From Octopus sinensis (Eukaryota), in assembly GCF_006345805.1 (NCBI RefSeq), contig NC_043014.1:8742001-8806000 (forward strand): 64,000 bases of DNA, written 5' to 3'. Of the stretch, positions 25,579 through 26,080 are shown in pieces. A model generated the notes under the pieces. That model saw only the letters and a list, made by a program, of their open reading frames with translations. It ran no database searches and was not told the origin of the DNA. Position 1 is the first letter of the stretch. Every line of letters begins with the position of its first letter. A program made the position numbers and the translations under genes.

Positions 25579-26080
25579 TTAAATGGGTAGAAGAAAGGTG
25601 TTCTAAGTCTAACAGCTGTTTCTGGGGGCTTGGCGATCCATATTGTGATGAACTAAATCTATCAATACAGTCCTATATTTAAGAGATGAGGAATTTTGTA
25701 CATTATTTACATTTGATGGATATTTGTCCTCATCTTGTTTGTTGTTTCGGCTGATATACCCACCAGCTTTCATCAGGTGTCTTGGGGAAATTTCGAACCT
25801 GAGTTCTCATTCCTGAGTTTTCGATGTTAATATTATCATCATCATCATCATCATCATTATTATTGTTATCATTATTATTATTCAGGTCACTGCCTGGAAT
25901 CGAACTCGGAATCTTGAGGTTAGTAACCCGTAGCTTTAATCACTCCGCCATATGCCTGTCAACAACAAACAAGATGAGAACAAATATCCGTCAAATGTAA
26001 ATCTATCAACATTACTATGGATCGGCAATCCCTCTAGAAACAGCTGTTGGACTTAGAACAGCTTTCTTCCACCCCTTTAA
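25579..26080. mobile_element. Fold-back PLE-like element (arms 25579-25650 and 26010-26080) carrying a hammerhead 3' half; its loop holds a younger insertion
   Basis: The arms are reverse complements; GAAAC-AGCT-GTT palindromic stem III at 26037-26048. Confidence 0.65.
25666..26002 (-). mobile_element. tRNA-headed SINE-like element with a hammerhead-containing tail and an inverted terminal copy
   Basis: A box TGGCGGAGTGA (25940-25950), B box GAGTTCGATTCC (25896-25907), CTGATGA-a-agctg/cagcc-GAAAC (25744-25776), inverted repeat 25705-25746 / 25961-26002, TSD taaatctatcaa. Confidence 0.75.

Follow-up and report, generated by a model that had tools for sequence, protein, structure and literature searches.

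tRNA-derived SINEs (SINE2) carry A and B boxes, are dispersed at high copy number and share their 3′ part with an autonomous partner. Their size is about 300 nt (PMC10886601). Among Penelope-like elements (PLEs), members of the Penelope/Poseidon clade such as PAc of Anolis are described as encoding a reverse transcriptase (RT) followed by a GIY-YIG endonuclease (EN) at the C terminus, without a CxxC linker; the minimal hammerhead in their pLTR overlaps the start of the open reading frame (ORF), and their insertions show two internal 3′ ends ~30 nt apart, an inverted 5′ arm and AT-rich targets (PMC11167929; PMC8557442; PMC4209133). An inverted copy together with a 30-40-nt tail is given as a PLE hallmark (PMC8557442) and has been explained by two internal RT start sites with extension of both DNA strands, ribozyme cleavage being dispensable (PMC11167929). 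Non-autonomous derivatives of PLEs are known as well, among them MRC1 (PMC8557442) and short Penelope elements (PMC6685494). Short units with a hammerhead have also been described in schistosomes, where Sm-alpha and Sj-alpha are tRNA-derived, apparently Pol III-transcribed, ~335 bp long and equipped with a type I hammerhead; this is of the canonical fast kind, the units form tandems, and the sections of these accounts used here name no PLE partner (PMC6765202, PMC2770079, PMC6155905, PMC8490949). Animal non-LTR retrozymes, also counted among the non-autonomous PLE derivatives, are likewise short hammerhead units; they are akin to pLTRs, and PLEs have been proposed as their movers. They are defined as tandem repeats, and no tRNA promoter is mentioned in the cited sections (PMC7229834; bioRxiv 10.64898/2026.07.22.740005). 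Finally, Cassandra, Helenus and Ajax ('TRIMp3'; PMC10886601) have a small-RNA-derived Pol III promoter inside a terminal repeat and are non-autonomous LTR elements with PBS/PPT.

Here, we describe an octopus repeat family that resembles each of these systems in part. It has the RT, the C-terminal GIY-YIG, the overlapping hammerhead, the insertion anatomy and the AT-rich targets of Penelope/Poseidon PLEs, but unlike the members of that clade as portrayed in these sources, its pLTR has a tRNA-derived A/B-box head followed by (AAT)n, and most copies start at this head. The family departs from Sm-alpha and Sj-alpha in its ribozyme, which is minimal and of PLE type, in its copies, which mostly stand alone or as inverted pairs, and in its unit, which belongs to an autonomous PLE; direct tandems occur at 2/70 loci, whereas retrozymes are defined by tandems. 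In contrast to Cassandra, Helenus and Ajax, the bearer of the putative promoter is a PLE, and the protein-coding element itself. The family shares with SINE2 the ~300-nt size, the A and B boxes, the many dispersed copies and the 3′ part common to an autonomous partner; however, that partner is a PLE and not a LINE, the whole unit and not just the tail is shared, the A-rich or simple-repeat 3′ end is missing, and insertions are often two-armed. The parts have precedents (Sm-alpha, PLE hammerheads, Cassandra/Helenus), while an autonomous PLE with a tRNA head in its own pLTR, a tRNA/Pol III promoter in any PLE pLTR and a SINE with a PLE partner were not found in full-text searches of a mainly open-access body of papers. 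We interpret the insert studied here as a short pLTR copy, likely copied by the element's RT/GIY-YIG protein from an RNA that likely was started by Pol III at the head (probability about 0.76).

The window insert and its hammerhead motif

The window is a stretch of 64,000 nt from Octopus sinensis (contig NC_043014.1, 8742001-8806000), and the genome searched comprised 2.72 Gb. The insert has ~350 bases, its main arm lies on the minus strand, and it is nested in a small MITE-like inverted-repeat element. Its parts, in window positions, are as follows.

25579..25642, no strand: left terminal inverted repeat of the recipient MITE-like element
25654..25665, no strand: target-site duplication, downstream copy (12 bp); single copy in the empty paralogous site L401
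25665..25698, minus strand: PLE 'tail', ~30-35 nt separating the short from the long 3′ end (family ~280-313)
25665..25810, minus strand: predicted first ~52 codons of the PLE ORF (first ATG 25810-25808)
25744..25781, minus strand: predicted minimal type I hammerhead motif
25781-25777, minus strand: hammerhead stem I, 5′ strand
25776-25770, minus strand: hammerhead CUGAUGA
25768-25749, minus strand: hammerhead stem II
25748-25744, minus strand: hammerhead GAAAC (CAGCC-GAAAC spans 25753-25744)
25829..25884, minus strand: (AAT/GAT)n linker of variable length
25885..25959, minus strand: tRNA-derived head; the window copy starts at family position +4
25950-25940, minus strand: A box
25907-25896, minus strand: B box
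25957..26002, plus strand: inverted second arm (family 228-273, short 3′ end)
25998..26009, no strand: target-site duplication, upstream copy (12 bp)
26016..26080, no strand: right terminal inverted repeat of the recipient MITE-like element

The tRNA-like head with its A and B boxes on the minus strand, the (AAT/GAT)n linker (25884-25829), the hammerhead core (stem I strand and CTGATGA at 25781-25770, CAGCC-GAAAC at 25753-25744) and the inverted tail copy upstream of the head had all been named in a sequence-only reading of the window, and we found each of them in place. That reading also took the flanking 12-mer for a target-site duplication. The recipient belongs to a MITE-like family with ~64-bp terminal inverted repeats around a short variable centre (266 genome candidates; window 25579-26080; L400, L401), and because its paralogue L401 holds a single 12-mer-like site without the insert, the 12-mer is a true target duplication. 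The window copy has the long 3′ end (family ~280-313 is present), and its ORF-start frame is damaged. Its inverted arm matches the main arm over 42 nt at 95% identity, overlaps the head by 3 nt and the target duplication by 5 nt, and folds back on the main arm (z −7.1). Loss of the stem I partner by deletion between AAC repeats, likewise proposed from the sequence, was borne out by alignment with 29 other copies: the window copy lacks 11 nt between two AAC repeats. Since this gap removes both the cleavage triplet and the stem I partner, the ribozyme core of the window copy is broken.

In the family, the predicted ribozyme reads GACAC-CUGAUGA-A-stem II-GAAAC-GUU-GUGUU and has the minimal type I architecture known from the pLTRs of PLEs (PMC4209133). 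Both core halves are intact in 100/183 arms. The suggested consensus GAAAC-NUH-GTGTC held for the NUH triplet (GUU) and for the existence of a stem I partner but not for its last base, the partner being GTGTT in 124 and GTGTC in 4 of the 183 arms; the C of GTGTC in the window's inverted arm is private or part of the 3-nt junction overlap with the head. An unpaired base precedes stem II, and the palindromic stem III pairs only between two molecules (dimer). We infer a dimeric action of the ribozyme: cleavage would need a dimer or the help of a protein and would destroy the ORF start, and the ribozyme would not set the insertion ends.

A repeat family and its Penelope/Poseidon-type partner

The 30 best matches aligned over a 313-nt unit in which the head (1-78, with boxes A and B at 13 and 56) is followed by (AAT)n and a body at 135-313. 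The exact 34-nt ribozyme core occurred 1,878 times in the genome and its reversed control not once, so the ribozyme unit is not a product of chance. The 32-nt head pattern gave 3,655 matches (control, 0) and the 14-nt tail end gave 6,255 (control, 27); because the latter is matched exactly by 19/45 sampled long ends, there should be ~15,000 or more long ends, and the number of copies in the family is likewise put at roughly 15,000 or more. Across copies, the head is linked to the ribozyme, whichever side one starts from: the body lay in line with the head at 27/30 head-selected loci, and a head was nearby at 50/70 ribozyme-selected loci, while five of the remaining 20 had it 500-830 nt off and 15 had none within 1-1.5 kb. 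At L059, L067, L079, L089, L098 and L180, other repeats in or beside the (AAT)n linker split head from body by 500-830 nt, and the linker has the look of a landing site for elements that seek out microsatellites. The A and B boxes are well preserved in the family majority. Compared with host tRNAs, the head scored z 2-7 (20 sequences from 30 loci), Arg(TCT) being the best, and it is 64-70% alike to other SINE-like heads of the genome; in Rfam and ARAGORN, the head and the minimal hammerhead scored below thresholds. The family is SINE-like in being short (313 nt), dispersed, present in high copy number and devoid of a complete ORF, and differs from SINEs in its sharp internal 3′ ends and its PLE partner, where a LINE mover and an A-rich or simple-repeat 3′ end would be found. 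The two loci with direct tandems are L081 and L092, and tandem arrays as in non-LTR retrozymes are not the form that these copies, mostly single or in inverted pairs, take.

A degenerate RT-motif pattern gave one match, L231, in which a 5′-truncated RT of the Penelope/Poseidon type directly abuts the inverted long arm of the unit, with no base in between. Using this RT as a query, we obtained 2,481 genome candidates, and the unit body was present at 23 of the best 30 of these loci. An autonomous PLE with RT and GIY-YIG that shares the tail, as the sequence-only reading had envisaged, was found by this route. After nine of 50 loci were removed as duplicates or overlaps, 22 of 24 long copies reaching the ORF end ran within ~30 nt into the tRNA head, in line; in the two exceptions, one alignment ends at the junction and one breaks inside the head. 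No head-less version of the partner was seen among the long copies. L241 consists of an inverted arm, a partial pLTR, the ORF and a pLTR, with the predicted minimal hammerhead in its pLTRs. The genome holds 65 exact pLTR-to-ORF junctions, and in the 38 that were translated the frame from the first ATG (position 157) passes through the ribozyme into a typical PLE N-terminus. Furthermore, P0003, a full-length relative from another assembly (56% identical), has the same ribozyme-coded N-terminal peptide (48% over 42 aa, E 1e-6). Because the head lies behind the ORF, L241 has this layout and the junctions are in frame through the ribozyme, the whole unit is the element's pLTR; head, linker, ribozyme and tail together were shown to form this pLTR, and the autonomous element, of the Penelope/Poseidon type, resides in the same genome. 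The 'AT-rich tail' of the earlier reading was shown by its predicted frame to be coding, corresponding to the ORF start (~52 codons), and it was this PLE ORF start that the tail matched, instead of the LINE 3′ UTR considered there.

The RT motifs are followed by YxIxCxCxxxYxGET, EH and two His (C-terminal GIY-YIG) in L234, L262 and L266, in keeping with a single ORF for RT and C-terminal GIY-YIG, and homologues are annotated PF00078/PF26215. A Pfam scan was blank for L266 and the 551-aa open-frame copy, though homologues are annotated as RT. The CX2-5CxxC linker between RT and EN, reported as lacking in the Penelope/Poseidon clade (PMC8557442), is absent from L266 and present in the Neptune-like L211 and L131. 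The closest relatives, P0001-P0007, show 54-68% identity, and in a quick RT tree without named references the family and P0001-P0009 formed one group (support 100), from which the Neptune-like copies were separate. The assignment to the Penelope/Poseidon clade is made from the predicted domain layout and not from this tree. Identity of the long copies to their majority is 89-96%. None of the 150 copies scored has an intact ORF, the longest open frame having 551 aa, and the family may be extinct.

Other candidate partners were rejected. The GIY-YIG search yielded mainly Neptune-like PLEs, and the unit body was shared at 0/50 loci (BLAST); the dominant Neptune-like family has a different ribozyme variant and (AT)n targets, and a GIY-YIG fragment beside L051 is an unrelated neighbour. 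The dominant Neptune-like PLE (L108:2362-2400, L211-L230) has several 781-aa open ORFs, a U3-A8 variant of the minimal hammerhead and two 3′ ends, and its near-identical GIY-YIG scores suggest recent activity.

To this partner corresponds the anatomy of the insertions, which we scored at 70 loci picked by the ribozyme core alone. An inverted second arm was present at 33/70 loci, and in 28/33 of these two-armed insertions one arm ended at 298-313 and the other at 266-292, ~30 nt shorter; this pairing of a long and a short arm is the PLE signature. Duplications of at least 8 bp were found at 36/56 two-armed insertions from both samples, compared to 13/300 mismatched or shuffled pairs, and target duplications in the family measure 8-13 bp. 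The outer end of the inverted arm is fixed (~273-287 or 308-313) and the inner end varies. The suggestion that the inverted arm starts at about the ribozyme cleavage site did not extend beyond the window copy, as an inner end at 228 occurred in this copy only (1/56 inverted arms). The 3′ ends are sharp and internal without a simple-repeat tail, and both recur as loose ends in reads of other runs. A shared continuation of four tail ends, in one 0.9-Mb cluster, was discounted since the two inspected are a segmental duplication. In addition, the pLTR-to-ORF junction copies L362, L364, L366, L380, L388, L394 and L396 run for 30-110 nt and then jump back into the pLTR or the end of the ORF, which suggests that template switches are frequent or that there are additional internal priming sites.

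The idea of a SINE moved by a PLE RT is upheld with regard to the mover, given the unequal arms, the 8-13-bp duplications and the partner, and must be given up with regard to a separate SINE with a borrowed tail, since the head is in the pLTR. In the latter scenario, a separate tRNA SINE would have taken nothing but the hammerhead tail from a PLE lacking a head, and long copies would have gained theirs secondarily. Short copies are indeed far commoner than long ones (14/105 arms continue into the ORF), the head is similar to those of other host SINEs, and solo short copies could have served as new sources; however, the head sits at the same junction in nearly all of the long copies and a partner without it was not among them, which makes this scenario very improbable. 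Chance nesting at the window locus, or an ordinary LINE-dependent SINE with a LINE 3′ UTR tail, might be read from the 15 ribozyme-selected loci lacking a near head, but is set against thousands of linked copies, sharp internal 3′ ends free of simple repeats, paired unequal arms and a tail that is the start of a PLE ORF; we give it practically no weight.

5′ ends at the head and candidate Pol III transcripts

At type 2 promoters, Pol III starts just before the A box. We determined the 5′ ends of 105 head-bearing arms, which were ribozyme- and head-selected and not chosen for full length. Ends inside the head (+11..+58) were found in 36/105 arms. The other 69 reach +10, and 55 of these stop between −15 and +10, while 14 run on into the ORF; the share stopping at −15..+10 is ~80%, compared to ~0.20 expected from the loss rate inside the head (P~1e-26). 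These stops lie ~3-17 nt before the A box, and because several of the −12/−9 end calls are fold-backs, the true ends cluster at ~−5..+10. Moreover, 26 arms stop between −5 and +4, ahead of the predicted mature-tRNA 5′ end, and two junction copies begin at −3 and +4 (L397, L376). Since 5′ ends pile up at the head, Pol III initiation there is quite probable, and the short copies are mostly not mere truncated PLEs.

The same element and mover could also have used long Pol II or read-through RNAs, in which case the head would be passive and the pile-up would come from RT stalls or cDNA snap-back on a short palindrome and the tRNA-like fold, or from an RNase P-type cut. A 5-bp palindrome spans −2..+10, exactly under the pile-up, where several copies fold back, and this inverted repeat might stall or fold the cDNA; short head fold-back copies are common, the largest single 5′-end mode, at +6, is the predicted mature-tRNA 5′ end (14/150 arms), and two junction copies (L370, L374) begin in the preceding unit's ORF. 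The mapped pLTR promoter of Drosophila Penelope is also reported to resemble TATA-less LINE promoters, unlike the tRNA head here (PMC2377424). However, the 26 arms ending at −5..+4 stop upstream of the RNase P site, a hairpin of ~four pairs would hardly halt ~80% of cDNAs when much stronger downstream stems do not, and the A and B boxes are well conserved in the family majority. We consider long RNAs with a passive head unlikely and prefer Pol III initiation at the head.

Under this preferred reading, the captured head would likely derive from a host tRNA-type SINE ending in (AAT)n, and RNA polymerase III would likely start RNA at the head in the pLTR. The enzyme would cut both DNA strands 8-13 bp apart, by analogy with Poseidon biochemistry, and two internal sites on the RNA, separated by ~30 nt, would each start one cDNA (PMC11167929). 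Where the two cDNAs meet head to head, the product would be a long arm and a short inverted one, flanked by a target duplication. A head-initiated RNA primed in its first pLTR would yield the SINE-like unit, and one primed in its second pLTR would yield ORF-bearing copies.

The whole 2.6-kb protein-coding element could itself be a Pol III transcript, in which a terminator-free RNA would run from the tRNA promoter of the upstream pLTR through the ribozyme and the ORF into the next pLTR. We hold this to be doubtful, as we do its corollary that a single RNA might serve as mRNA, as full-copy template and as template of the SINE-like flood. Sense-strand TTTT is absent from both the 2,418-nt majority and the 2,627-nt natural copy L241, and 41 copies have scattered runs only (0.36 per kb), whereas Neptune-like ORFs of similar T content have 9-13. 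The expected count is 2.5-4, and the probability of none is 0.014 by base shuffle and 0.03-0.07 under codon-aware nulls; GGGG is likewise absent from the ORF (0 versus 2.8 expected), and the absence of TTTT from the short unit alone is uninformative, as 61% of shuffles also lack it. Among relatives, 3/25 comparable RT-EN segments are TTTT-free and the same three have runs elsewhere in the unit, and close and distant relatives hardly differ in Phe content (3.1 versus 3.2%). The TTTT-free ORF would be weak support for Pol III transcription. L397 and L376, which start at the head, stop ~175 and ~335 nt past the pLTR, and none of the junction copies was seen to extend from the head across the entire ORF.

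Of 20 relatives inspected, one, L284 (38% identity), has a ribozyme preceded by A/B-box-like motifs, a CCA and (AAT)n (z 3.8). The A/B-box pattern used on relatives recovers 2/9 family heads, so blanks mean little; for the L284 match, chance was estimated at ~5%, and two TTTT runs follow 80-200 nt after the start codon. L284:1475-1730 and 4265-4522 (JGI1357J11328_10009043; protein P0120) belong to a distant Penelope/Poseidon-type element in exact tandem with a 2,791-nt period, whose hammerhead overlaps the start codon and is preceded upstream by the tRNA-like motifs. It is a possible second tRNA-headed PLE, a lead and not proof.

If the preferred reading is right, SINE-type parasitism extends to a third retroelement class, with an identified partner, and there is another route to a SINE: an autonomous element captures a promoter, and through internal priming its end repeat becomes a short unit with a promoter of its own, which outnumbers the full element. 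With thousands of dated insertions that can be counted, the family would also be a natural test case for the model of two-site, two-strand priming in PLEs. In annotation, families of this kind would be misfiled as tRNA-SINEs or tRNA pseudogenes. The reading further raises the question of whether an uncapped Pol III RNA can act as a retrotransposon mRNA; were the whole element transcribed by Pol III, it would be an autonomous Pol III-run retrotransposon, with SINE birth caught in the act and perhaps repeated in L284.

RNA reads and other repeats of the window

None of the records listed as containing the stretch is registered as RNA, which counts neither way. Two RNA-seq runs (X21, X22) of a related organism were available. 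The body is abundant in these RNA reads, with both strands about equal and loose ends at each of the two 3′ sites, and molecule ends did not pile up in the two runs; equal-strand reads without such a pile-up would be the pattern expected of host read-through. A single 'goes back 55' joint is explained as well by a genomic local duplication as by a circular RNA. Two-armed insertions form long RNA hairpins that look like A-to-I editing substrates. In L002:1635-1806, A>G and T>C differences were found at 25-29 places in RNA reads and at 1 place in contigs from run X15. For 17 of these places, chosen from the RNA table and with DNA not matched, their frequency was 10.9% in RNA versus 2.1% (70/3,292) among genomic copies; at one of them, DNA had the higher value. 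A-to-I editing of fold-back arms is likely from these differences. At L002:1682, ~350 reads per run (X21, X22) share a diverged version of the pre-ribozyme sequence, which is an older subfamily or one highly expressed old copy of organism B.

Three further repeats were noted in the window. At 2790-2960, a short insert beside an (AT)n run has a decayed hammerhead-like core (CTGATGA...) and is probably an end piece of another PLE family. A near-perfect palindrome of ~107 bp at 27238-27344 forms a MITE-like hairpin, for which several miRNA models were scored, all below thresholds. Finally, a repeat with a ~185-bp period is present in many copies, 85-95% alike and in short tandem arrays, at 5256-11550, 36498-36920, 48441-50670 and 56061-63066.
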